DNA of 28,298 nucleotides, counting the filler, from an uncultured virus (IMG/VR IMGVR_UViG_2061766007_001638) (Duplodnaviria; Heunggongvirae; Uroviricota; Caudoviricetes). It is 3 parts of one record of this genome, joined end to end, with 100 filler letters (N's around TTAATTAATTAA, not from the genome) between each part and the next. Parts side by side here need not be neighbours in the genome. Positions count along the whole stretch, not along the records: positions 3,412 to 28,298 come from IMGVR_UViG_2061766007_001638; 2 more parts are not named here. One strand, 5' to 3'. Shown here piece after piece: positions 3,466 through 25,979 of the stretch. Below the pieces are notes generated by a model. It worked only from the letters and a program-made list of their open reading frames with translations. It was not told the origin of the DNA and searched no databases. Each line of letters begins with the position of its first letter. Position 1 is the stretch's first letter. A program made the translations under genes and the position numbers.

Positions 3466-5168
3466 TCAACTATTCCGTATTTCCTTCCATCCTCGCTCCT
3501 TGTTCCTGGAAATTATACGCCTTATATTGTTCGCGCCAACTGGATTCGCACTATGAATATGTACAGTAACGTTATCGCATCCGCAGAAATCAAGATAATC
3601 GAAGCATCTTACGTAATCCCCTCCCTGAGACTGGTAGTCTCCAGCATCGTGGTCTGTGTCTATGAGTGTTACGTCCGAAAAATCGTTTCTTTCGTGGCAC
3701 CAGTCAATGAAATCGTTCACACTTTTGAACCACTTGAACCCATCTGGGGCTTCCCTTATGTCGTCAATCCATATCTTTATTCCGTTCTCTGGGACTTCGT
3801 CCGACTTCTCTCCGCCGATGTCTTTCTCGGCTTCTTGGATGTTTCCCTCTTCGTCCCTATATATTCCCATGAGCCTGTCGTAGATTTCCTTTAGGTTGTC
3901 GTTTTCTTTCTTGTCATTGACATTGTGGAACGCAAGCCTGACAGTCCATACGTCATCGGCACAATCGTTGCTCCAGTCTATCAGCCATACGTGTCCGAAC
4001 TGTTCAAGAAGCTTTTTCACGAGCTTTTTCACGACAGCCAGATATGTGACAAGCTTTCTTTCGGTTCCAGCTCCGTTGCATCCCCCGAAAACCGTGATTA
4101 TGTAATCGTCATACTCTGTTCTGTGGACAGAACTCAATCTGAGACTGTCTTCCTTGTGCTCTTCGTCTGGGTCGGCCTGACAATCCTTCACAATATCGTT
4201 TACGACGACGAAAATCCAATCACTTGACGGAATGTCCATCCATTTTTCGCCCCACTGGTTCACTGGCTTGTCGTCGTAGTCTGGAATCCAGTCTTCCATA
4301 AGAAGCTTCAGGCTGTTGTGGACGAATTTTCTTGTCTCCTGGATATTTTCTCTTCCATTATCAGTCATTGGGAACTTTTCCTCACTTTTGAACGAACACC
4401 GATACTCTGGCTCGTCATCTTTTTCGTCATCTGCAAGAATCTTCACGTCGCAGACTATTGAATAGTAGTACTTGTCCCCGTCCTTGAGCTTCTTGTCTAT
4501 TCCCTTGGCCCTGAACTGTATTCGTCCTATCCTGTACGCCTCCGAAAGGGTCTTCAATTCCCCGCCGTCCATTGTCTTGAGGCCAAGCGGATTGTATTCT
4601 GGGTCGACTATGTACAGTTCGTCGTCTACCTGGATGTAATAGACTGGCTCGTACTTTGCGGTCTTGTAGTATTCCGCTATCTTCTCCCCGAAACCCTCCA
4701 GCGGAACCTTGTCGGTTATGAACTGGACGTCGTTTTCCGNNNNNNNNNNNNNNNCACGCCTCTATGAGCTCTGTCGACAGGTCTTTCGGGATGTTGATGT
4801 CTTCCGTCTTGAGGTATTCCTTGCAAAATGAAATGAATCTCTAAGAGCCTCTTTCCAGAGCCTCAAGATAAATCTGCGTAAGATGGTCTTCCTCTTCCTT
4901 CGTCGTCGTACATGTCCATTTTCCTTCCTTGTACTTGAATGAAGGTCCTCCTAGGTTCGCGTACTTGTTAAGTTTGACTTCCAGCCATATGTTCTTCTCG
5001 TTTTNNNNNNNNNNNNTAGAACTTCGTGTCCGAGCCTTCATATCTTGAAACCTTTAGGTTTGAAAATGGTTCACCCTGTGATTGCAGAAACTTCTCGAGA
5101 TTGTCCTTTATCTGAACCTCGAATTTGTCCGATTTCGTTTCGGATGTCTTTGTCCCTTCGCCTATCAT
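3466..5168 (-). CDS. PD-(D/E)xK nuclease-like domain fused to a C-terminal cyclic-phosphate-processing receiver (cREC)-like domain
   Basis: MIGEGTK...GSDTKF-gap-IWLEVKLN...LERGS[TAG 4841-4843]RFISF-gap-IAEYYK..YYIQVDD..YNPLGLK, then the supplied 368-aa ORF ending IWIDDIREAP..IDTDHDAG..HIHSANPVGANNI and TGA. GTAAATA at 5177-5183. Confidence 0.65.
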
Positions 5169-5200: not shown

Positions 5201-7023
5201 TCATTGGTTTTTGGCAGTGTCTTCTATGCTCTTTGACATTGTCAATTTCTCTTTTTGCGTCTTAAGATACGTTGTTAAGTGCAGCCTTGACGCATCCCTT
5301 ACCGATACAATTNNNNNNNNNNNNNNNNNNNNNNNNNNNNACTCTGCAAAACTCTAAACATTCTTCAATTCAAGAGGATTTCCTTTGTTTTTTGAATTTC
5401 CTCCTATAAAATACACGTCATCGCCAATCTCTATGTATCTACATCCCTTTCTCTTGTAATAGCTGTCTATGCTATCTATAATCTAGTCTTTGAAACTCTT
5501 TCCGTTTTCACTTTCGGAATCCTCAAACGTAAACAACGTGTATTTCTTGTCAGTTTCATCTTGATTTTGTTCTTCGTCTCCGTCCGTATGCGGCTTTTTG
5601 CTGGGAAGGAAATCATCGGTTGAGATGAAAAGTTTGTATATTTCCCTGAATTTTGTAAATTCATCAGAAAACATCATTCTTCCGTCATTTCCGCATAATT
5701 TTTTAAATTTTTCTTTTATTATCTTTGCTATNNNNNNNNNNNNNNNNNNNNNNNNNNNNATATATGTAATTTGATGAAAGAAACATGAATTTTCTAACCC
5801 ACTCCAAAACGAAGAAATTAAAAACTTTAGCTAACTGCTCAAATCCTTCTGGGAAATTCTTTGCCTCTTCTGGGTTGAAATTAAGTTTTTCCTAGACATT
5901 CTCGATTTGATTCAAACTATCTATGCAAAACTATACATTTTCTCCAAGCTGTAAAAACTTGTTCCTTATGGCATCTGATGTTGTCATTATATCAGTTAAC
6001 AATTTATTAAATTTCTTGTCTGTGTATGAAGTTTTCCTGGTATCATTTTCTCTGTAATATGTGTCTCTTACTTTACTGAGTTTCCCGTCTTTGAACATTA
6101 GACTAAACTTAAAATATCCAGCGTCCTCATAATTAAGCTTCACTTCTACGAAGCCAGTCAGCNNNNNNNNNNNNTGTACATAACGTCAGAATCATTAGAG
6201 CCGCCGACCCACGCAGCACCTGGTTCATCTACGTGGTTTTTTGAATCGTTTTTGCCAGTTATGAGCAAATTTAAACCGTCTCTTACGGAAACCTCTTTCT
6301 TTTCCCAGTCTTTTACTGGCTTGGAGTCCCTTGTTTTGATTTTTGAAGTATTTAATATGTCTTCGTTAACGTTTTCTTCTTNNNNNNNNNNNNNNNNNNN
6401 NNNNNNNNNTTTGCACTGTCATCAAACTTGTCACCAGAATTTTCATACGATTTACGTCTGAACTCTACTGCATCCTGAACGTTTAATAACTAGTCCCGTG
6501 TTTCATCTATGTTTATGTCAACACCGTCTTTACCGAAAAACTCGTCTTTATATTTTTTAATCTATTCAATGGTATCTTTTTCGTTATTTTTGATGTTAAT
6601 CGTTTTGTTTATAAGGTTAAAAACTATTTTTCTGTCATTTATCTCATATATTCTATTTTTCAGAAGGTCGTACATCACGGAAAAGAATTCCATATCAGTT
6701 TTCGTAATCATCATCCACGGTTTTCCTNNNNNNNNNNNNNNNNNNNNNNNNNNNNNTTTTTTCCACTTATTGACCATGTTCTGAAAAATGCAGAATTTAT
6801 CTTTTTGAGTTTTGTATTCTTTAAAATCTACTGGAATCTCCGCACTTCCATTATTTTCAAGATTGATTAAACCATACGCACTGGTTTTTCCCAAACGCTT
6901 GAACGTGAATATAAAATCATCTGTATTAAGAACAAACTAATCTTCATCATAAGATTCTTTGTTCTAAGATTCTGATAGTGTTTTTTTGGACCACCCAATG
7001 AAAAACTGTTTGAAATTTTCCAT
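5201..7023 (-). CDS. Large PD-(D/E)xK nuclease-like protein related to the downstream gene; 8 in-frame TAG
   Basis: ATG at 7023 with GAGGTG upstream. TAG at 6964, 6937, 6562, 6490, 5931, 5892, 5483 and 5354. Motifs GGSNDSDV-gap-GFVEVKLN and YYKRKGCRYIEIGDDVY..NPLELK; TGA at 5201-5203. Spans five N gaps. Confidence 0.6.
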
Positions 7024-7038
7024 TTATTAATCTTCACC

Positions 7039-8346
7039 TCATTTTTTCAGAAGATGCAATATTTGATTTATCTGCCCGAACTGTCCGACTATCTTATAGC
7101 ATCTGCCAGTCTTTCCAAGCTTTATGATTACACCTTCGCTTGGGAAGAAATTCTCTTTCCAGTTGTCAAGCTTCTTCATGTTCTTGTTGAACATCTTTAG
7201 TTTTTCCTTGGTGAGCTTTCCGTTGTCCTTCTCTATTTCGCTGATTGCGCTTTCAAGTTCCAATGCAAGCTTCTGGGAGGTCTTAGACGGGTCGGCAGAA
7301 ATGAATCCAGTGACGTTCTTCAAAAGAAGGCTTCCAGCTTTCGACACCAAAGATTCGACTGGACGCATTATCTCCTCGTTCATCTCGTCTTTCTGGGATT
7401 CAAGGGTCTCCATGACTTTTCTGTACTCTTCGGAATGGACGTTCACCCCAGCCCTCTTTGCGAAAGTGCAGATGTCGCTCTTCGTAGGACGCTTCCCACT
7501 CAGATAATTCAGCCTGTCCGCCATCTCCTTCAGGAACTGGCAGTCCTTGTCGACCCCTATTCCGTTATGGTTGCAAACGTTTATGATATAGCGTTTAAGG
7601 CGCTCGTTTGCATAGTCCTGAATGGTCGTATTGAGGGAGAACCCATCTATGAGCTTGTCGAAGTCCTCCATCAGCATCCCGAGGGCTTTCGACGCATTTA
7701 CGCTGTCCTTCATCCTGAGGACGTTCTGCTACGTAATCTCGAACATTTCCTGTTTCAGGGCGTCGTGTCTCTTGAGGGTTTCGTAAAGCCATTTTGAAGA
7801 ATCCCTGTCCTCCGAAATCTTGTTGAACTTATCGTCAAACACGTCTACGCTGTTCAGCTGGAGAAGACACCTGTTTCCGTAATCCAGGATGTTCGCGCAT
7901 GGAGGATACACGATTTCAATGTTCGCGAAATTCTGTCCGTTGTTAAATAATCTCAGCAAATCCTTCTGTTCAATGGACGACAGGGCTTTTTGCAGGCTTT
8001 CTGCGGACGTCACGAACGCTTCCTTGAGCTTTGGGTTTCCGTCAAAGTACTGTCCTAGCTTGGATATGTTCATCGGCTCCTTAAGGGATGCCTTGTTTCT
8101 CGCGAATCCAAAATTTCCATCCTTGAACGTGACCATTATGTTTGCTCCGTCGAGCTTTTCCGTCAGGGTGGTCTTTCCCTGAAACACGTCTTGCAATATC
8201 GAACGCATTTCACCGAAGGTCATTTTTCCGTCTTCGTAAAGATGCATTATCCTCTATGCGGCCCCTCCTTCCAGGATTATCTCTTTGTCAAAAACCTCTT
8301 TAACTATCGCTCCGAGGTCGAGCCTGTCTTCAGGTGTCAGTTTCAT
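7039..8346 (-). CDS. Ligase-like covalent nucleotidyltransferase-fold protein (KxDG motif), 435 aa
   Basis: MKLTPEDR...IILEGGAA[TAG 8254]RIMHLYED..TEKLDGANIMVTFKDG..ARNK..NIEIVY..MFEIT[TAG 7729]QNVLRMKD..SEGVIIK..YKIVGQF, TGA. No N gaps; the two supplied ORFs join in frame. Confidence 0.7.
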
Positions 8347-8407
8347 GCGCTTTTCTTTCCGATAATAAGTATTTCTGGAGTAATTAAAGTAGTACTCCTA
8401 TTAGGGA

Positions 8408-8462: not shown

Positions 8463-9167
8463 ATGAAATTTGCAAACGCAAAATCCAAAAGCACCAAGCA
8501 ATAGAAAAAGGCATAGAAGAAAATGCCATTTGGGGGATAGGGAAGGACCTCGAAGAAAAGGAAGACAGCCGTCGACATGACGGACGAGGAATTAGAGGAG
8601 ATGATGCGAAAGAAAAGGGAAAGGGACGAAAATCCACAGATAAGGGAAAGATATTACGTCACGAACGCGGACCTTCTTAGGGAACTTGAAAAATGGAGGG
8701 ACAGCAACAAGAAGGAAGAGGAGAGAGAAAGGAAAAAATGGGAGAATCTCCCAAAATCCGTAACACAGGGAAAGGAATTCCAAGTCGACTACAACAAAAG
8801 GACCATTTCGGAAGAGCTTGGAAAGATGTTCATGGAACTTGCAAGGAAAATCTCCAACCATTCGTTTTTCAGGAACTATACATTGCAGGACAAATAGGAC
8901 ATGATGGGATACGCATATGAAAAGCTGATTACGGGACTTCCAAACTACAACTTCAAGTACAAAAACGCGTTTGCCTATCTAAGCCAGGTCTGCTTCAACG
9001 CATTCAAGACCACGCTTTCGAAATACTACAAGCAAATAAACATAAGACGCTCACTTACCAAAAAGGCTATTGTCGAACTAAACACATACCTCCCGAACTC
9101 AAGCATATCAAAATGCCTGAATAACCAGTTCGAGGGAAACGACTACGACGATTTCTCGGAGTACTGA
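8463..9167 (+). CDS. gp55: T4 gp55-like late sigma factor with 4 in-frame TAG
   Basis: YYVTNADLLREL..W, ISEELGKMFMELARKIS..FRNYT..DK[TAG 8895]DMMGYA and NAFAYLSQVCFNAF match gp55-family motifs. The in-frame ATG at 8463 adds a basic extension with TAG at 8502, 8514 and 8538; 8577 is an alternative start. Confidence 0.85.
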
Positions 9168-9168
9168 C

Positions 9169-9753
9169 ATGAGCACACAGAAGATAAACGAAGCATTGGG
9201 AATAGAGTCAATCGACTCGTTTCTCTCGTCATTGGACATAGACGACAAGAAAATCGACCAACTGAGCCAGGTGGACGAACAAGTGAGGGGCGACATAGAG
9301 AGAATAGATGCCCAAATGGACAATTACAAGAACGGCGGAATAGAAAAGGTCAACCTGGACGACATTTCCACAAGTCTCGGACACATAAAAGAGCTGGTTG
9401 AAGTCTCAAAAGATACCATAAGATACATATACCAGCAGATAATAGATTCTGAACTTGTCGATTCGGAACTTGTTGGAAGTTTTTCCAAGTTGCTCGAGGC
9501 CGTACATATCCAGATTTCCGAATACATCGGACTTTACAAAGACAGGCAGAATTTCTACTATAAAGTCAAGCTCGAAGCGATAAAACAGCAGAACAAGCTT
9601 GAGCAAATGAGACTGAAACAGGAATTTGACCTCGAGAAAATAGAGAAATCCAAGAAAAACGACGCAGTAACAGTCGACAACATGAAAGTCGCATACAGCC
9701 AGGAAGACTTAATCAAGCAGTTGGACGATGCGGACAATCCTGATTAGAATTGA
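9169..9753 (+). CDS. Helical protein, possibly gp16-like small terminase
   Basis: Reading through TAG 9745 gives ...NPD[TAG]N and TGA at 9751-9753. The helical pattern and C-terminal TVDNMKVAYSQEDLIKQL resemble T4-like TerS only weakly. Confidence 0.4.
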
Positions 9754-10430
9754 CCTTGCGTCTCTTGTAGTTCCTGCATATTCCGTTCGGGTCTACCTTG
9801 GGCCTTGCGTCAAGCCTGAACATAAATGGATTATTTGGATAACGCGGACACCTTCTTGGGGGTGAAATGAAATCAGAACAATCGCACGGCGGCGCTCCGA
9901 GTTCCCATCCGAAACTTCCTTCTGGGCCTTTATTGCACAGTTCTCCGTGAATCCACCAATGGTGGTCGCATCCATGATTGTCATACGTGCATTTTCTGCA
10001 TGGGTCTCCGTCAATCGTGTCGTTGAAGAATTTAAAATTTTCTGGATTCCTGCAAATCATGCGTCTTCCGTGTCGATTCCTTCTTTCATCCTTCGTTTCA
10101 GAGAATTCGCAGTTGAAACAGCAGTCTGGGTCTATCTTCCTATACTGAATCTTGTCCGCGTACACCCAGATGTCNNNNNNNNNNNNNNNNNNNNNNNNNN
10201 NNNNAGTTCTTTACCTTCCGTTCAAGACACTTCTCGGCCTCAAAAAGAGTCTGGAATCTCTCCGTGTCTCCGATTCCTTCTCCTTCTGCATTGTAAACCT
10301 GAACACAATAAAGCGTGACTGGAGCGGAGTCTGTCGGTTCGTCTGCCGNNNNNNNNNNNNNNNNNNNNNNNNNNNNNNNNNNNNNNTCCACTGTCTTCTG
10401 GGACTCTTCTATTCTGACGGAACGTTTCAT
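9713..10430 (-). CDS. Cys-rich hypothetical late protein
   Basis: MKRSVRIEES..., two gaps, then IWVYADKIQYRKIDPDCCFNC..CRKC..C..CDC..GICRNY and TGA. GTAAATA at 10442-10448. Confidence 0.6.
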
Positions 10431-10434
10431 ATCA

Positions 10435-10465
10435 GTAAATATTTACAGTATTAGATATGTATAAT
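10435..10465. promoter_or_regulatory. Palindromic bidirectional late promoter plus a TATAAT box
   Basis: GTAAATATATTTAC (10435-10448) is a perfect palindrome with GTAAATA on both strands; TATAAT at 10460-10465 on plus. Confidence 0.6.
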
Positions 10466-10475
10466 ATTCTTTGCC

Positions 10476-12077
10476 ATGATTGAATATGACGAGAAGATTG
10501 ATTCGATTTTGCGAGATTGGGTTGAAAAATTTCCACGGTCGTATTTTAANNNNNNNNNNNNNNNNNNNNNNNNNNNNNNNNNNNNNNNNNNNNNNNNNNN
10601 NNNNNNNNNNNNNNNNNNNNNNNNNNNNNNCAAGAATATTCTCGAATATGTCGAAAAATGCACACCTTTATTGAACGACAACAAATATATTATCTCGACA
10701 AAGGTATATTGGGTTCTGAACAAAATTCAAGATTTTCCAAGGTGCAAAATATGTGGAAGCAAATTANNNNNNNNNNNNNNNNNNNNNNNNNNNNNNNNNN
10801 NNNNNNNNNNNNNNNNNNNNNNNNNNNNNNNNNNNNNNNNNNNNNNNNNNNNNNNNNNNNNNNNNNNNNNNNNNNNNNNNNNNNNNAAAAATTGACGAGA
10901 CAAATATCAAGAAATATGGAACAAGGAGATTTACTCAAACAGACAAGTTCAAATCCATCATAATAGAACGAAATTACGATATCGAACAAAAGAAAAGGAA
11001 TACGCATCTTGCAAACAAATCTTACTCTGAATCAAAACCAGANNNNNNNNNNNNNNNNNNNCCAGACTTAATCTGGCATTATACTTCAGACGAATATCCA
11101 TTTGAATGTGACTTTTATTCTCCATCTGACAATATATACATGGAGTATAACGGAACATGGACTCACGGAGAACATCCATTTGATAAAAACAACCAAAATG
11201 ACATAGATAAGGTCAATGAGTGGAAATCGAAGACCGACAAGAATGGTAAAATAAGACCATATTACAAGAACGCGATATATACATGGACCATTCTCGATGT
11301 GAGAAAAAGAGAATGTGCAGTTTCAAACGGTTTAAAACACATCGTATTCTGGAACTTGAACGAGGTATACGAATATGCAATACCAAATTATAATGATATC
11401 CTTCTGGTAAAAGACATAATAATTCCTTTTAGACGAAGCGTAATAGAAAACGAATTCATTTATTATAGAGACACAAAATGTCCAATATTGAATCAATATG
11501 TTTCAACCAGAAACGAGATAGTTAAGTTTTTTCAACAAGATATGTTCTTCAAAGAAGAAAGAAGGATATGGAACAAAGATATTGTCAAACGGAACAAGTT
11601 GATTGAAAACAGGATGAAATATCTTAAAAAGAATGTAAGTGAGCTTACACATTGCGATATTCTCAATGGATTCAAAAGGTCTGGAATATATTATGGATAT
11701 TCACATTTCAATCCTTTGTGGTTCAAGTGGTTCATAGAGAAATATGGAGTAAAAAAATGTTATGACCCGACTGGAGGATGGGGTCACAGGCTTCTTGGTG
11801 GATTAGACTTAGAGAAATACATATACAACGACAAGTCTCAAACTACAAAGAAACATGTAGATGAAATGATAGACTTTTTCAATATAAAAAATACAATTAC
11901 ATATTGTTCTGATGCANNNNNNNNNNNNNNNNNNNNNNNNNNTGTTCACTTGTCCTCCATATTTCAACCTAGAGAAATACGAATGTGGTGATTTCAAGTC
12001 TAGAATTGAATTTGATGAATTTATAGAATGTCTGTTCAATATCTTTAATTTCAAAAATTCGTGTAATATATTCGGAC
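10476..12077 (+). CDS. Zn-ribbon/KYG-repeat Vsr/DUF559-like endonuclease fused to an amino-DNA methyltransferase; 3' end lost in a gap
   Basis: PRCKICG, TNIKKYG, SKP..YPFECDFY..IYMEYNGTWTHG..D..KR; then, with no gap, YDPTGGWGHRLLG (SAM-binding motif I); after a gap, FTCPPYFNLEKY (motif IV). Visibly AT-richer than its neighbours. Confidence 0.75.
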
Positions 12078-12087
12078 NNNNNNNNNN

Positions 12088-13603
12088 CATACCGTTGCTC
12101 CAGCTGTACTGCTGCGTAAGACCATCGACCACGATGTAGTGGTAGTAGTTCTTCGCATCCCACACGCTGTTCATGATGCCGTAACGCGTACGAGCACCGA
12201 TACGAGGCGTGAGGGTGTCGGGGTCCAGGACCTTCTGGAGCTGCACAGGGACGTATGGGCAATAAATTATGCCGTTGTCCGCAGGATGCGCACCCTTGTA
12301 TCCCATGACGATGTAGTCGCCAGCCGCATAGACGTCGCGGACGAGGAGCTGCTGACCATCGTTGATGAGACCAATCTTCGTGAGCGCACCGACGCCGCTG
12401 TCAGGCACGGAAGGAGCGTTCTTGCTGTTCTGGAACGAGACGAACTTCTCGCGGCTCATCTGCTCGAGGAGGGCGCAAACGCGAGGTGACGTAATCACGA
12501 AGTTTGCGTGTCCACGACGAGTGCGGAGAGCAATCTGGTTAGCCTCAATCGTGACCTGAGTGAGGAGCGTCTGGAGACGGCCCATCTGGTCAAGACCATC
12601 TGCGTAAGCAGGATTCCATCCAGAGATGGAGCCTCCGACGATAGCCGTCTTCACCATCTCCGTCACAATCTGACGGTCGATTTCAGCACCAAGCTCGTAG
12701 GTGATGAGGTTCACGAACTCGGACTCAACGTCAAAGTTGTGGATTGCCNNNNNNNNNNNNNNTCTTGGCCTCAACCATCGTCTTGAGGAAGTCGAACGAA
12801 ACCATCGGATAGGAACCGTTGCTGAAGCGTGCATACTCGGAGTTGTATCCGAGAGGTGCACCCTCGCCAGACCAAGGTCCATTTCCGTTGGTTCCGACAT
12901 ACTGCTTCCACGCAGCTGCCTTAGCGCCGTCCTCTGTGAACCAAGGAGCGTTTGTAGAAGAACCATCAGCCTTGGTTCCATTTGCATACGTTCCATTCCA
13001 CGCAGGAGTCTCACCCGTGAGAGATGTGAGTCCACCAGTAAGCTCGTTGCCCGTATAGCGGGTATCGACTGGATTGAATCCGATTTCCTGGTCGTGGATG
13101 TCCAGATGACCCGTTGGGTCTGTGCGGCAGTCACCATANNNNNNNNNNNNNTCGCCATACTTCGCACGATAAGCGAGAGCGTATCCGAGAGGTCCGTTGA
13201 GGGCCTGGACACCAACGAGCTCATGAGCGATGAGGGATGGGAACAGACGACGCACCATAGGCATGATGACGTTCGGGAGGTAGTAATCACCGTAATCGGA
13301 AGCGTTCTTGATGTTCTCGCGTCCGAACTTGCCCTTCAGATATCCCTTAGACGTCTTTCCGTCAATAGGATATGCGTCCTTGCCACCGAGGGGGGACTTT
13401 CCGCCTCCGTAAATCTCACCAGACGTCATGCCCGTGGCTTCCGTCAGGAGACCAGCCTTGGCGAACTCCTTCGCCGTGTTCTCGAGAAGCTGAGAAACGC
13501 TCTTCCTCACCTCGTAGCTGGTAATCTTCTCAGAGCCAGCCTCGACGATGGGAGCCCAACGCTTCATAATCGTCTCGATGTCTTCTTGAATAATCTTTGC
13601 CAT
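12088..13603 (-). CDS. gp23: T4 gp23-like major capsid protein; 3' end in a gap
   Basis: MPMVRRLFPSLIAHELVGVQALNGPLG, VEAK-gap-AIHNFDVESE..AEIDRQI, TRRGHANFVITSP, GYKG..GIIYCPYVP, DPDTLTPRIGARTRYG. Probable LLTE/A processing site; no visible TAG. Confidence 0.95.
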
Positions 13604-14707: not shown

Positions 14708-16591
14708 TCATTGGTTTCCGAAGCCAAACGACGGTTCCTCGCTACTATTTTCCTCTCCAGGGGGTGAATTATCGGCTTTTGGGGGTTCTGGAGCCTCGCC
14801 GTCTCCTTCTCCAGATGGCTCTCCTCCATCTTCTTCTCCTCCGCTTTCCTGACCCTCTTCTTCATTTTCCTTTTCTTCGCCAGAAAGCCTCAGAGGTGAC
14901 TTGAAGTCAAGGGGCTTGTTGTCGTCTCCAATCTTGTCGGCATAATAATCAGCAAGCGCAACAAGCTGCTTCTCTTTTATCAGGTTAAGGAAGTTCTGGT
15001 CTATTTCCTCGTCCGTCATCTTGAGAATCTTCTTCATCGCGTTTATCTTGGAGAGTTCTTCCTGGTCTACAACGGCCTTGTACGTATCCATCATGGCCGT
15101 CACGTGTTTCTGGGTCTGGTACAGGTCATAAAGGATTGGAGTCACGAAATCAACGCTGAAATCCGATTCTTTAAGCTGATATGTCTTCCAGAGTCCTATG
15201 AGCTTCAAATGGGTGATGAAACTTCTCTTTAGACCCATCGACATTCTTCTCTGTATTCTTATGACGCTTCGCGCCATGGAATATTCTTCATATGTTATCG
15301 TATCATCTCTCTCAAGCGAATTCTCTGGAGCCTTGTATCTTGAAAAAGGAACCTTGAACTACTTGAAAAGACGCCTTAAGAAGAATTCGATGTCTGCTAT
15401 CTATTCATAATCTGCGGTTGAACCGACCGATTCCACCGTAGTACCGTCGTTGGCGTTTGTCTTTCCGAAGAAATACGTCTCTAGCATCGAAACTGGGTTG
15501 TATACCTGGGTAATTTCCCGTTCGCTGCTCTGGTTCATCTCTCTGGACGAGATTATCTTCTTCGACTTGAGGTCGTTTATGAACTGCTGTATTTTCTGGC
15601 GTGCGACCTTGTCCGCCATTCCGCCAGTGTTGATGTTGAAGAGAAGTCTTTCTGGAGCCCTAGTAACACGTAGGATTACGGCTGCGTCCTGCATGAGTGC
15701 GAGCTGATGGTATGCCTATTTGCATTTTTCTATGAGAGGAAACACCATCAAACCGTCTGGAGACGTTTCTCCAGATGAAATGTACGTAATCTGTGGCCAC
15801 AGAAGGGGAATCGTGTCGTCCTTGTCGAAATCGACGTTGGACTAGACGGCAATCATGTTGTTGAATATGGACCTCGCCCCTATACAACTGTTCGAGATAA
15901 TGTTCTTCAGGTCCTTGTTCATCTTCTCCTTGTTGAACACTATGCCCATCGAACGTCCAGTCTCTCCGTTCAGAAGGGTTTCATAGTATTCTGTAGGAAG
16001 ATACTTCACCCCTATTATTCCGAGTTCTGGTTTCTGTGGATTGATGATGTTCTCGAATGCAACCTCCCCTTCGACAAGGAGTTTCTTCACCATCCAGAAC
16101 GCATCTTCCTTGAACTTGAACAGGTNNNNNNNNNNNNNNNNNNNNNNNNNNNGGTGCTTCTTGTTCGCTGGAATGTTAAGTTTTATCGTCTGACCAGTCT
16201 CGTCTTCGTGCAGAACGTCATCAGCTATCTCACATAGGCAAAAATCGCACTCCGTGTACATTGCCATGGCCCTGTACTGCCTTATCCTCTCCGACTTGTT
16301 CGTCATCAGTGGAAGTGCAAGAATGCCAGAGAACAATGACTGGAAGTATCTGTCTGGAGACGCAATCTAAGTGTGTGTAGGGAACCTTGAAACAACGGAA
16401 CGCCTGTCTATTATGTCCTATATGTTGTTCTGGGCGTTGTTGAATATCTCTATGTTCGGGTTTTTGCTGATTGCCTCTGGTCCGAACTGCTGATTTCCGA
16501 CGGGGATTTGGTTTTTCTGGACCTAATCCCCGTGGTTTATCTGCCTTTTTCCATTAAGGCTCCTGTATTTCCTGAACAAACCCTCTAACAT
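14708..16591 (-). CDS. gp20: T4 gp20-like portal protein with 7 in-frame TAG
   Basis: RIRQYRAMAMYTECD..EIADD, AYHQLALMQDAAVILRVTRAPERLLFNINTG, SMLETYFF..GTTVESV, IADIEFF..FKVPFSR..ITYEE. TAG at 16523, 16418, 16367, 15842, 15716, 15401 and 15359; TGA at 14708. Confidence 0.93.
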
Positions 16592-16600
16592 AATAAATCA

Positions 16601-17365
16601 TCAAAGATTGTTGCCGATTGCATTTGAAGCGGAACCGTTATCGGATTTTCCATTCGCGTAATCGTCGATATCTGCAAGGCTCTCGTCATCTCCATGCCCA
16701 CTGTCGTCGGCATTCTGCTCGCTTCTCTTCTGCCATTCGGACTTTTCGTCATCCGCGTCGTCAAGGTCGTCGTCTTTGCTTGAATCGTAGTAGAACCAGT
16801 CCGTGCTTGGGTCCCCCAGCTTCTCCCTGACCGCCTGGATTATTCCATCAATTCCCTTTACGTCTTTTTTCGACCCGAACTTCTTTTCAAGTGCGTTCAT
16901 AGCCTTTTCGGCTTCGGCGTTGGTGAGTTTTATGTTCTTCTCACCCTCTGGTCCGCTTCCGTTTATCGTTATCTCTGTAAAATCCTTGTCTCCCTTGAAC
17001 TTGACCTCTACCGTTCCGACTGGTCCCTTCTCGCCAAGGAACGCGGTTCCCATTCTAAGGACCTTTCCTGGCTTCACGACGGCAATCGTCTTGTCGTTTC
17101 CGTGCTTCTTGTTCCAGTCAGACATTATGTCCGCAGCAGACATTGCTTCATCTGCCTTGGTAGTGACCTTTCCACCTTTCTTGAAGTATTCCTCTATCTG
17201 GTCCACGGCGTTTCCGAGAGCTATGTCCGTGATGTAGACCTTGTCTTCCTTGTTTCCTTCTTCTAGCTGTTCTCCGTCCGTATATTCATCGTCTTGGTTT
17301 GGAAAATACCTTCCCTCGTTCACCATGTGAACCCAGGTTTTCATGCATTCGGAAAAAGTCTTCAT
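16601..17365 (-). CDS. Hypothetical late protein, candidate internal head protein
   Basis: 254 aa with N-terminal MKTFSEC..VNEG and an acidic tail; GTAAATA at 17396-17402; directly upstream of portal. Confidence 0.7.
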   Translation of the reverse strand: MKTFSECMKTWVHMVNEGRYFPNQDDEYTDGEQLEEGNKEDKVYITDIALGNAVDQIEEYFKKGGKVTTKADEAMSAADIMSDWNKKHGNDKTIAVVKPGKVLRMGTAFLGEKGPVGTVEVKFKGDKDFTEITINGSGPEGEKNIKLTNAEAEKAMNALEKKFGSKKDVKGIDGIIQAVREKLGDPSTDWFYYDSSKDDDLDDADDEKSEWQKRSEQNADDSGHGDDESLADIDDYANGKSDNGSASNAIGNNL

Positions 17366-17706: not shown

Positions 17707-18634
17707 CCACCTATCACTTTCTGCGTCTCATGAAGAGGAATGGGCTTGAAATTCCCTAGTTTGTCAGACGTCCAACCGTCTTTTTCTTCATCGTAATAAN
17801 NNNNNNNNNNNNNNNNNNNNNNNNNNNNNNNNNNNNNNNNNNNNNNNNNNNNNNNNNNNNNNNNNNNNNNNNNNNNNNNNNNNNNNNNNNNNNNNNNNNN
17901 NNNNNNNNNNNNNNNNNNNNNNNNNNNNNNNNNNNNNNNNNNNNNNNNNNNNNNNNNNNNNNNNNNNNNNNNNNNNNNNNNNNNNNNNNNNNNNNNNNNN
18001 NNNNNNNNNNNNNNNNNNNNNNNNNNNNNNNNNNNNNNNNNNNNNNNNNNNNNNNNNNNNNNNNNNNNNNNNNNNNNNNNNNNNNNNNNNNNNNNNNNNN
18101 NNNNNNNNNNNNNNNNNNNNNNNNNNNNNNNNNNNNNNNNNNNNNNNNNNNNNNNNNNNNNNNNNNNNNNNNNNNNNNNNNNNNNNNNNNNNNNNNNNNN
18201 NNNNNNNNNNNNNNNNNNNNNNNNNNNNNNNNNNNNNNNNNNNNNNNNNNNNNNNNNNNNNNNNNNNNNNNNNNNNNNNNNNNNNNNNNNNNNNNNNNNN
18301 NNNNNNNNNNNNNNNNNNNNNNNNNNNNNNNNNNNNNNNNNNNNNNNNNNNNNNNNNNNNNNNNNNNNNNNNNNNNNNNNNNNNNNNNNNNNNNNNNNNN
18401 NNNNNNNNNNNNNNNNNNNNNNNNNNNNNNNNNNNNNNNNNNNNNNNNNNNNNNNNNNNNNNNNNNNNNNNNNNNNNNNNNNNNNNNNNNNNNNNNNNNN
18501 NNNNNNNNNNNNNNNNNNNNNNNNNNNNNNNNNNNNNNNNNNNNNNNNNNNNNNNNNNNNNNNNNNNNNNNNNNNNNNNNNNNNNNNNNNNNNNNNNNNN
18601 NNNNNNNNNNNNNNNNNNNNNNNNNNNNNNNNNN

Positions 18635-19406
18635 GAATACAAGACGACCGACGCCGTTAAAAATTCCGCACAACATCATTGTTATGATGACCAACTGCTG
18701 AGAAAGTCCAGATTCCTTGAGAATTGACGCACAAGAACCGATTAGAATGAGTCCCATCGAAATGTTCAGGAACATGAACGTCCACATTTTCCTGAAAAAC
18801 GGGTCTTTCAAGCGTTCAATGTAGCTGAAATCCTTCTTTTTCTGTCTTTTAAGCTTGATTAACGCGTATTTCGGCTTGTTTATGAGGANNNNNNNNNNNN
18901 NNNNNNNNNNNNNNNNNNNNNNNAGAACGTTCCAGCGATTCCAAACCTCGGAAACAGGAATCCAAACAGCCACGAACAAAGCGCGGAACCCAATCCAAAC
19001 GTGAAAATCGATATTGCCGAAAGTATTCCCTTATGTTTTGTCGCTGGAAACCAGAGAAGCATGTTCTTGTTTGGAGTAATATAACCAATCNNNNNNNNNN
19101 NNNNNNCAACGGTAGGCTTTTGATTGAACATGCAAGTCCTCCAAGGGCGAGTCCAGAAATAAGAAGAAAAGACGACGCGGTCGCTGCCATTTTTATCCGT
19201 CTCTCCACAAGAGGACCAAAAAGTGCAGCACCCATTCCAAGGAAAAAGATGTTCAGGCAGAACGTAAACTGAACTGCCTTTACGGAACATCCCATAATCT
19301 CGGCTATATGCGGGGTAAACAAGCTGAACGCATAACAGAACCCGATACACAGAGTCAACATTATGCACGGAAACACCGATTTCAACAATTTATACATCAA
19401 TTTCAT
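18635..19406 (-). CDS. MFS transporter, oxalate:formate antiporter (OxlT/YhjX-like) family; 3' part masked
   Basis: LCIGFCYAFSLF, FFLGMGAALFGPLVER, IGYITP..L.WFP..KG..SAISIFTFGLGS, F..MW..MFLNISMGL, GIFNGVGRLVF; many transmembrane-like segments across three gap-shifted frames. Confidence 0.8.
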
Positions 19407-25253: not shown

Positions 25254-25943
25254 TCATATATCTATATGTCCTCCATCGGAACAATAAATAGTCGAACCGT
25301 CTGGAAGAGACCACGGAAAATTTGTCATTCCCCTTACCGTCTCTTCGTCTTTTCCTATGGTTACTCTAACTAGAGAGTTGTTTCTAATAAATGCATCTTC
25401 ACCAATGCTTTCTATACCACTTCCGATTATTATGCTCGTAAGACTGGTACAACCGTCAAACGCATAAATATCCACGTTCTTGACATTTGGCATGTCGACG
25501 GATAAAAGACTTGTGCAACTAGTGAACGCATAACCACCAACACTCGAAACATTCGACACGTCAACTGACGGAAGATTGGTGCAGTAAGAAAATGCACACA
25601 ACCCTACATTCTATACATTCGGCATAGATACTGACTTTAGATTATTACATCTGAAAAACGAATACTCACCGATATTCTAGACTTTCGGCATGGAAACTGA
25701 TAACAATTTTGTGCAATTAATGAACACACTGCTCCCAATGCTATGGACTTTCTTTCCGAAATTTACATTCTCAACATAATCTATCTCTATTCCATGGTTA
25801 GTCATGAAATCGCTATTAATCTCTCCCCTAACGAGAAATCTTCTTGGTTCCTGTTCACCCTAAATATAAAATTCAGTTCCAAAGCTGTCTATCCATTCGA
25901 CGTCCCTTTGTCCTGGCTATCCCAAAAAAACTCCTGATGACAT
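25254..25943 (-). CDS. BspA/LRR_5-type leucine-rich repeat protein (229 aa) with 4 in-frame TAG
   Basis: ATG at 25943 after AGAGGT; TAG at 25917, 25860, 25677 and 25611; 22-23 aa repeats of the form V.MP.V..(I/V)G..AF..C..L.S; TGA. Confidence 0.85.
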
Positions 25944-25979
25944 GTTTATTACCTCTAATTTCCAAAAATTAAGAAAAAA

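Follow-up and report, generated by a model that had tools for sequence, protein, structure and literature searches.

Homing endonucleases and restriction-modification (R-M) systems both cut DNA selfishly and are usually treated as separate kinds of element. Type IIG and IIC R-M enzymes serve cellular defence, combine a gamma-class methylase bearing an NPPY motif with a C-terminal target-recognition domain, and act on short sites. On the homing side, I-Bth0305I is an intron-encoded enzyme with NUMOD modules and no methylase. The EDxHD nuclease family is characterized by a Glu, an Asp, an Asn or His, a His and an Asp, which correspond to E25, D51, H64, H69 and D97 in Vsr and to E170, D196, N208, H213 and D222 in I-Bth0305I (PMC3239194). 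Here we analyze a 28,298-nucleotide stretch of DNA (the window) from an uncultured virus of the Caudoviricetes, IMGVR_UViG_2061766007_001638, and confirm that positions 10476-12077 (+) form a single gene of about 575 codons in which a nuclease is fused to a methyltransferase. We lean, if guardedly, towards reading this gene as a mobile cut-and-mark cassette with intact nuclease and methylase motifs.

The union of the two domains can be followed directly along the DNA. The gap-free segment 11062-11916 translates without a stop into 285 amino acids (P0001) and contains CDFY (11107-11118) and YMEYNGTWTHG (11137-11169) of the nuclease core as well as DPTGGWGHRL (11764-11793), the motif that binds S-adenosylmethionine (SAM); since both domains lie on this uninterrupted segment, the nuclease and the SAM motif are physically joined. 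FTCPPY follows at 11945-11962, beyond an N run at 11917-11942. The open frame with nuclease core and SAM motif, described in an earlier note on this DNA, is indeed present. The gene as a whole is represented by five N-free plus-strand pieces (10476-10549, 10631-10766, 10887-11042, 11062-11916 and 11943-12077), which the window coordinates put in three different frames, an artefact of wrongly sized N runs. Logan contigs of four public runs were placed on window 10205-12748, and one of them, X1-1 (5,584 bases; run X1, a bovine gut metagenome and the probable source of the sequence), starts some 3.7 kb out in the left flank, runs through the gene and ends 22 letters past 12077. Its gap lengths (21 letters against 81 N, 155 against 120 N, then 19+15 and 26+8) bring all five pieces into one frame, and among its extra letters, as distinct from those beneath the N runs, there is no in-frame stop. 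The pieces are likewise colinear and in frame with single open reading frames (ORFs) in two related viral loci, L006 (8843-10525, 560 amino acids) and L007 (8943-10580, 545 amino acids), identity to the L006 ORF being 52% over its residues 184-459. The fusion of nuclease and methyltransferase in one frame, as the earlier note proposed, is borne out by X1-1, L006 and L007 alike. There are 182 homologues at E ≤ 1e-3 with a best value of 2.8e-116, far beyond chance; the full-length product is estimated at about 575 amino acids.

That an assembly chimera joined an unrelated AT-rich gene to the phage is barely credible. The scaffold gives some grounds for suspicion, with 40 N runs (2,064 N in total) of wrong length, a sharp jump in GC content at the edges of the gene and a right junction that is unbridged. 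Against this, a second assembly joins the whole gene to its left flank in contig X1-1, and both the fusion gene and its left neighbour, here called the up gene, have their starts inside one N-free stretch, 10387-10549. Moreover, the same cassette occupies the same slot in the related loci L005, L006 and L007, and near-identical pieces occur in run X3 of another study, which contains 11701-12077 with one difference. The right-hand N run, 12078-12087, hides the 3′ ends of the fusion gene and of the major capsid gene along with the spacer between them. Contigs enter it by 22 and 33 letters and then end with the frame still open, which means that the true gap is far longer than 10 bases; judged by homology to L006 and to L001, another relative, it conceals about 46 codons of the fusion gene and about 19 of the capsid gene. 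The adjacency of the two genes rests on scaffolding plus synteny.

The N-terminal part of the protein resembles the DNA-binding modules of phage homing endonucleases. Piece A (10476-10549, +), supported by the coverage of X1-1, provides the ATG and the first 24 codons of a helical module. Piece B (10631-10766, +), assigned by homology, continues the N-terminal module with the first CxxC of a Zn ribbon (FPRCKICG) and matches L006 8969-9076 and L007 9024-9131 with 42% identity. Piece C (10888-11040, +) is a KYG-type repeat region with a weak match to phrog_3339 'homing endonuclease' (E 0.019), at a place where the homologues bear DUF7487 (PF24308). The Zn ribbon and KYG repeats mentioned in the earlier note are seen in part: the first CxxC and one KYG are visible, and the remainder is hidden beneath N.

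A Vsr-like (EDxHD-type) PD-(D/E)xK nuclease domain follows at 11062-11400 (+; P0001 residues 1-113). Its characteristic residues are D17, E28, N30, H35, D79 and K82; in alignment A5, which comprises 19 nuclease domains, D17, Y19, H35, D79 and K82 are invariant in all 19 and E28 is kept in 17. The order and spacing of CDF...EYNG...WTHG...WTxxDxxKR fit the D, x = N, H and D of the EDxHD scheme as laid out in PMC3239194, with D17, N30, H35 and D79 forming the composite motif, a mapping based on motif order and spacing and not on residue-level superposition. The upstream Glu position falls beneath the N run 11043-11061, where the letters of X1-1 begin in frame with a Glu codon. An AlphaFold2 (AF2) model of P0001 reached a predicted local distance difference test score (pLDDT) of 94.5 and a predicted template modelling score of 0.80. 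Compared by VIA-align, its residues 1-108 matched the Vsr-DNA complex 1cw0_A with Z 6.3 and a root-mean-square deviation (rmsd) of 3.5 over 88 residues, a modest score, and 1cw0_A is the sole row that is not a methyltransferase in the best 50 of 48,161 chains. Foldseek with the P0001 model returned no match at E ≤ 1e-3, and the nuclease-only profile A5 had no meaningful match among PDB sequences, none to 3R3P or Vsr; its best match, a phycobilisome linker at 0.0021, was dismissed as repeat-like. The relatives of the nuclease include free-standing proteins with DUF7487 (PF24308) and match phrog_3339 at E 8.5e-23. Among cultured phages the nuclease matches Lak megaphages only, with 6-8 copies per genome (examples are MK250029.1 206800-207126 and MK250016.1 41731-42477). 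Lak phages also hold one distant homologue of the methylase, with 25-26% identity over 83-89% of P0010, a separately encoded family member.

The C-terminal half of the chain opens with a helical methyltransferase subdomain (11401-11760, +) marked by FQQD, NRxKYL and YGYSHFNP motifs in alignments A1 and A4 and in AF2 models, and it is at the start of this subdomain that the separately encoded methylases of the family begin. The first half of a Rossmann core (11761-11916, +), delimited by alignment and fold match, carries motif I DPTGGWGHRLLG, the acidic end of strand 2 (YND) and motif III (SDA). Piece E (11945-12076, +) adds motif IV, FTCPPY, and a conserved NxExYECG segment; it is recognized through matches to phrog_12517 (1.1e-6) and phrog_498 'DNA methyltransferase' (9.7e-5) and through the corresponding motif of gp77 from Listeria phage B054. 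Motif I, present in the window, is invariant in the family. Across 47 separately encoded members there is no variation in the residues of motif I, in the ND that follows strand 2 or in the Cys of CPPY, and hardly any in the motif III Asp; in the METHYLTRANSFERASE part of the window copy every visible motif is kept. Dead catalytic sites, which the earlier note had named as evidence that would speak against it, are not what we see, the visible motifs of nuclease and methylase both being intact.

Because the window copy is cut by N runs, the methyltransferase fold was tested on P0003, a full-length homologue with 57% identity whose model has a pLDDT of 84. Residues 235-483 of P0003 match TrmN (3tma) with Z 15.8 and rmsd 2.6 over 160 residues and Trm11, METTL5 and RsmD with Z 13.8-15.5, in a flat list that also includes Trm14, which places the model in the class I (Rossmann) SAM-dependent fold. 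As a comparison of models, this match speaks for the fold and the neighbourhood of (D/N)PP(Y/F), and not for the substrate. The sequence relatives speak for a role on DNA. A tblastn search with P0010 found a Vibrio phage 'N-4 cytosine DNA methylase' and also B054 gp77, a protein that has a ParB_N domain and scores above the PF01555 cut-off; profile A4 and gp77 share an identical FTCPPYFxLExY, and hhalign aligned them over 172 columns (probability 96.6%, E 5.8e-10). In BFVD the neighbours include Pithovirus 'cytosine-N4 DNA methyltransferases' and a 747-amino-acid analogue of the full-length protein (E 2.9e-29). The ESM Atlas neighbours, all viral, are automatically named N4-cytosine DNA methylase or 'DUF7487/DNA methylase domain-containing protein', and PF01555 is present in 15-98% of the members of neighbouring Atlas clusters. 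The window pieces, P0003, P0004, P0010 and P0050 stay below the Pfam gathering threshold for PF01555, the whole-family profile A2 had 0 matches at E ≤ 1 among PDB sequences, and Pfam, NCBIfam and PHROGs offered no functional model for the methylase. Taken by its sequence relatives, the domain appears to be a remote relative of the PF01555 DNA N4/N6 methylases.

The tetrapeptide of motif IV deserves separate mention. The earlier note took CPPY for a less common variant; in this family it is the rule: of the 139 new top representatives, 130 have CPPY, and SPPY stands in 4. Its Cys lies outside the classic (D/N/S)PP(Y/F/W) residues, as it does in the TCPPY of gp77, and by alignment would occupy the position of Ser in classic N4/N6 enzymes. 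The domain is best explained as an amino-methyltransferase of small size that is predicted, from sequence, to act on DNA at N6 of adenine or N4 of cytosine and that belongs to an uncharacterized CPPY branch. It is quite improbable that the domain instead methylates RNA or protein, for example the adjoining capsid protein, or only binds. The best solved structures are tRNA and rRNA m2G/m6A methyltransferases, the motif IV Cys departs from the classic residues and the gene stands constantly beside the capsid gene, all of which fit such a role. Yet the sequence relatives with the same TCPPY are DNA methylases, SPPY does occur within the family and the domain is always paired with DNA nucleases; a mere binding role is at odds with the invariance of the SAM-binding residues.

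The genomic setting points to mobility. The fusion gene (+) is opposite in strand to the up gene on its left (9713-10430, -; delimited by ORFs and tblastn to L003, L004, L007 and L012) and to the major capsid gene on its right (13603 to 12088, -; major head protein phrog_138, E 2.7e-39 and 4.9e-15). It has a GC content of 0.323, whereas the left flank has 0.429, the capsid gene 0.551 and the sequence further right 0.444-0.448, and all 8 of its visible Gln codons are CAA with no CAG, compared with 2 CAA and 25 CAG in the portal gene. An in-frame TAG is absent from its 477 visible codons. The gene is compositionally foreign, and the AT-richness, strand and lack of visible TAG remarked on in the earlier note all hold.

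Using the capsid protein as query, we gathered 16 related viral loci. Three of them, L003, L004 and L012, with 74-89% capsid identity, have no cassette, and there the up gene comes straight after the capsid gene; these are the empty sites that the earlier note had suggested looking for. Their alignment reveals the capsid stop, a terminator-like hairpin and a conserved leader of about 20 nucleotides. The window retains this leader in the part nearest the up gene of the 45-nucleotide divergent spacer (10431-10475) that separates the up-gene start (-) from the fusion-gene start (+), and the cassette starts just past it. L007 has one cassette and L005 the start of one, while L006 has two in tandem (8843-10525 and 10629-12440, +) behind one capsid gene. 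The first L006 copy has a Vsr-like core and the second a segment resembling, by eye, a classical PD-ExK motif; the window methylase is nearer to the second copy (66% over 138 amino acids) than to the first (52%, for the whole of P0001 including the nuclease). The closest relative, L001 (97% capsid identity), has different genes in the slot (8780-9639, -): a 195-amino-acid ORF convergent with the capsid gene and a 69-amino-acid ORF that resembles a TnpB-type tail by eye, neither of which has a Pfam match. The slot behind the capsid gene is polymorphic among close relatives. As for L004, most of its long spacer belongs to the beginning of the up gene; a 12-base likeness there was considered as the footprint of a lost cassette and rejected, blastn-short having given chance words only. 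The L004 up gene (about 4660-4845, +) has an in-frame TAG and a GC content of 0.30-0.32, compared with 0.49 in the adjoining capsid gene.

An intergenic insert that is patchy in close relatives and foreign in composition has the lifestyle of the Seg and Mob genes of T-even phages, and the best explanation is that the fusion gene is intact, horizontally acquired and mobile. The cassettes of the relatives run in the same direction as the capsid gene and that of the window is inverted. At the left junction this inversion is genuine: it is seen there in N-free sequence and again inside X1-1. Another contig of run X1, 'record 2' (on window 11149-12165), contains a second, diverged cassette with a capsid-like piece upstream on the same strand; with this usual orientation, two arrangements coexist in one rumen sample.

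The family extends well beyond these relatives. Out of 1.84 billion, a profile of the methylase domain retrieved 2,567 representative clusters at E ≤ 1e-3, of which 643 also pass ≤ 1e-10 and 223 ≤ 1e-30. The earlier note held that nuclease and methylase are normally separate genes; within this methylase family that finds no support, fusion being commoner, since 89 of the 139 representatives have at least 450 amino acids and 28 have 330-449, with 22 below 330, and the split genes abut a nuclease. Pfam was run on the best-ranked 77 of 95 representatives of at least 400 amino acids: 37 have DUF7487, two each have LAGLIDADG and NUMOD3, one each has HNH and the Vsr-type REase_MTES_1575, and 34 have no match.

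A profile search of IMG/VR located 37 methylase loci, which are not de-replicated (about ten share one 312-amino-acid form and two come from the L006 and L007 contigs). CPPY is found in 36, the remaining one being cut by a contig end, and in 33 the GC content of the methylase gene is below that of its flanks. A major capsid homologue is adjacent in 30 loci; in 29 of these it lies upstream on the same strand, 104-2,342 nucleotides off, and L020 is convergent like the window. The convergence stressed in the earlier note holds for the window as scaffolded and is shared by L020, and at the same time it is exceptional. Two of the seven loci without a capsid match begin at a contig edge. An architecture search, as proposed in the earlier note, thus recovers the fusion in 14 of the 37 viral loci: the fused nuclease is Vsr-like in 11, PD-ExK-like in one, and HNH or LAGLIDADG, both by Pfam, in one each. 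A separate Vsr-type gene abuts upstream in three loci and lies just downstream in one, a separate, intact HNH-like gene of 251-256 amino acids ends a few bases inside the methylase start in 17, and contig edges leave two that are not assessable. The HNH-like call was made by eye, aided by phrog_1035 (2.2e-7) and invariant His, Asn and Lys columns. A homing-type nuclease partner, fused or abutting, is present in all 35 assessable loci, and the methylase is paired with four or five unrelated nuclease types. The family consists of nuclease-plus-methylase cassettes, either fused or as two abutting genes, and many large phages known from uncultured sources have one at the 3′ flank of their major capsid gene.

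Pairing by fusion or tight operon with at least four unrelated nuclease folds is a classic sign of a functional link, and the nearest analogy for the cassette would be an R-M pair. In the mechanism that we propose, the Zn-ribbon and KYG-repeat module would bind DNA as in phage homing endonucleases, and the nuclease would cut cassette-free relatives near the capsid-flank slot during co-infection. Recombinational repair would then copy the cassette in by intronless homing, or the outcome would at least be marker exclusion. The methylase, made with the nuclease or within it, would mark the DNA of the carrier, which would be spared, and would probably also guard against host restriction. Four points of this scheme are inferred: that the substrate is DNA, that the nuclease cleaves it, that the gene homes and that methylation protects. 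A more specific version, which we put forward tentatively as possible and short of probable, is a cut-and-mark homing element of one protein or two genes whose methylase marks, in the carrier genome, the very site at which the nuclease is aimed, giving epigenetic self-immunity in place of a change of the target site. At least four unrelated nuclease folds would each have been combined with the methylase on separate occasions, with the capsid 3′ flank as a landing site shared by very distant phages.

Several observations weigh against a cut-and-mark cassette. A homing site is long, a methylase recognizes a short one, and the protein has no evident domain for target recognition. The inverted orientation of the window copy, relative to 29 of 30 capsid-adjacent loci, is not what simple homology-guided homing predicts, and none of the Logan contigs of the four runs bridges the gap 12078-12087. 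With respect to the domains themselves, a Z of 6.3 to Vsr is within the range that unrelated folds can reach, no Pfam or NCBIfam model recognizes the nuclease or the methylase of the window, the nearest solved structures are RNA and not DNA methyltransferases, and HemK, a protein methyltransferase, is among the weak matches. Redundancy among the 37 loci lowers the weight of their counts, and Pfam found no HNH match in the partners of 251-256 amino acids. Finally, the methylase is intact where the nuclease is decayed or absent (P0100, P0005 and P0007), the N-termini of the LAGLIDADG and HNH fusions are unrelated to the Vsr type, and the N-terminal state changes at least 41 times on a FastTree phylogeny of 220 methylase domains. 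That tree is rough and without support filtering, and the choice of its rows was skewed by the length limits of the homologue search; changes between no extension and an extension number at least 24 on it, compared with 69-75 in the five listed of 100 label shuffles.

The last three observations fit equally well with repeated nuclease invasion. The methylase would then be a useful phage gene, whether resident or cargo, for example an anti-restriction orphan, upstream of which homing nucleases keep inserting, and fusion would serve expression with no cooperation between the parts. The unrelated folds of the partners, the two tandem copies with different nucleases in L006 and the other genes that the slot has taken up in L001 suit this explanation as well, and we regard it as a serious contender, if on balance a doubtful one. 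What it does not readily account for is that a nuclease-free methylase gene is found in none of the 35 assessable loci, and that in the clade of the window nuclease and methylase are present or absent together. Fusion is moreover the majority state and the split pairs overlap by a few bases in operon-like fashion; as a rule, homing genes that stand free retain signals of their own and are not fused to a neighbour.

The order of domains raises a further alternative, namely that the protein is a single-chain R-M-like weapon that does not home at all and degrades unmethylated DNA of co-infecting phages or of the host at many short sites, its own genome being methylated. The nuclease is N-terminal to the methylase in one chain as in Type IIG/IIC enzymes, the methylase is small and has no evident reader of long sites, and standalone relatives of the nuclease are multi-copy in Lak megaphages, at 6-8 places per genome. 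We consider this unlikely, given that all nuclease partners are of homing type with long DNA-binding N-termini (DUF7487, NUMOD3, LAGLIDADG), and that a fixed slot in 30 of 37 loci combined with patchy presence in close relatives is a signature of site-specific mobility.

The wider neighbourhood includes a portal protein (phrog_213) and a family B DNA polymerase. The portal gene (14711-16597, -) has 7 in-frame TAG and no TAA or TGA in 629 codons, and at 4 of the 7 TAG sites the relatives show Gln in 6-8 of 9-10 rows; TAG is read as a sense codon in the window phage. The same usage appears at 7042-8400, 3469-5037, 5204-5911, 6355-7023 and 25257-25979 (-), and the capsid, scaffold and fusion genes are without in-frame TAG. 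No tRNA, including suppressor tRNA, was found within the window. A blastn search of the capsid gene against cultured phages gave no match, and upstream of the fusion gene a single sigma-70-like match (TTTACA-17-TATTCT), with 0.6 expected by chance, is no evidence of a promoter. N-run lengths differ from real gap lengths at 10349-10386, 10550-10630, 10767-10886, 11043-11061 and 11917-11942, and genes that cross N runs therefore seem frameshifted, as does the capsid gene at 12749-12762. An 835-base N run at 17800-18634 hides most of the region between the genes at about 16601-17365 and 18849-19406, and all frames look open there only because of N.

One methylase family is tied to homing-type nucleases at one conserved slot. 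If the methylase shields its carrier, this would constitute a new self-immunity mechanism for free-standing homing genes and a natural bridge between homing elements and R-M systems, as well as a source of rare-cutting nucleases with matching methylases. Even without such coupling, the family represents a gene for DNA modification that lacks annotation and is widespread among phages of the rumen, the gut and aquatic habitats, and the capsid 3′ flank is a hotspot for mobile genes.

Compared with described systems, the fusion gene combines familiar parts in a different way. Like I-Bth0305I of Bacillus phage 0305phi8-36 (PDB 3R3P) and Hef of T4-related phages, it is carried by a phage and built of several domains, a Vsr-like core coming after an N-terminus that binds DNA, and for the catalytic Asp, Asn/His, His and Asp of I-Bth0305I (PMC3239194) it has D17, N30, H35 and D79. 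Unlike I-Bth0305I, it is free-standing, has a Zn ribbon and KYG repeats (DUF7487-type) and continues into a methyltransferase. With the free-standing Seg and Mob homing genes of T-even phages it shares the AT-rich, patchy insertion between structural genes, beside the major capsid gene; segD lies between genes 23 and 24 of T4. The Seg and Mob proteins differ in being GIY-YIG or HNH enzymes of about 200-250 amino acids with no modification enzyme, and the resemblance is one of lifestyle and not of family, as the nuclease fold differs. B054 gp77 (PF02195 + PF01555) belongs to the same methylase branch, with motif I followed by FTCPPYFxLExY, and likewise has an N-terminal DNA-binding or nuclease-like domain fused to the methylase. 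In contrast to the window protein, it passes the PF01555 cut-off, its partner is ParB_N and not a homing nuclease, and its gene lies near the genome end with small unnamed genes and an anti-repressor, not with a capsid gene. Single-chain Type IIG/IIC enzymes (MmeI, Eco57I type) are similar in placing the nuclease N-terminal to an amino-methyltransferase and in coupling cutting with self-marking. The window family departs from them in its CPPY motif, its homing-type partners and its locus among phage structural genes, and its full-length homologues end about 85 amino acids past motif IV with no further domain. Literature searches on fusions of homing endonucleases with methylases, on the position by the capsid gene and on DUF7487 found no description of such an element, judged by titles and opening lines of abstracts; the papers retrieved on endonuclease-methyltransferase fusions concerned archaeal R-M or chromatin. 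The fusion gene can be described as a predicted homing-type endonuclease that carries a methylase, and the window adds a member in an unusual, inverted orientation.

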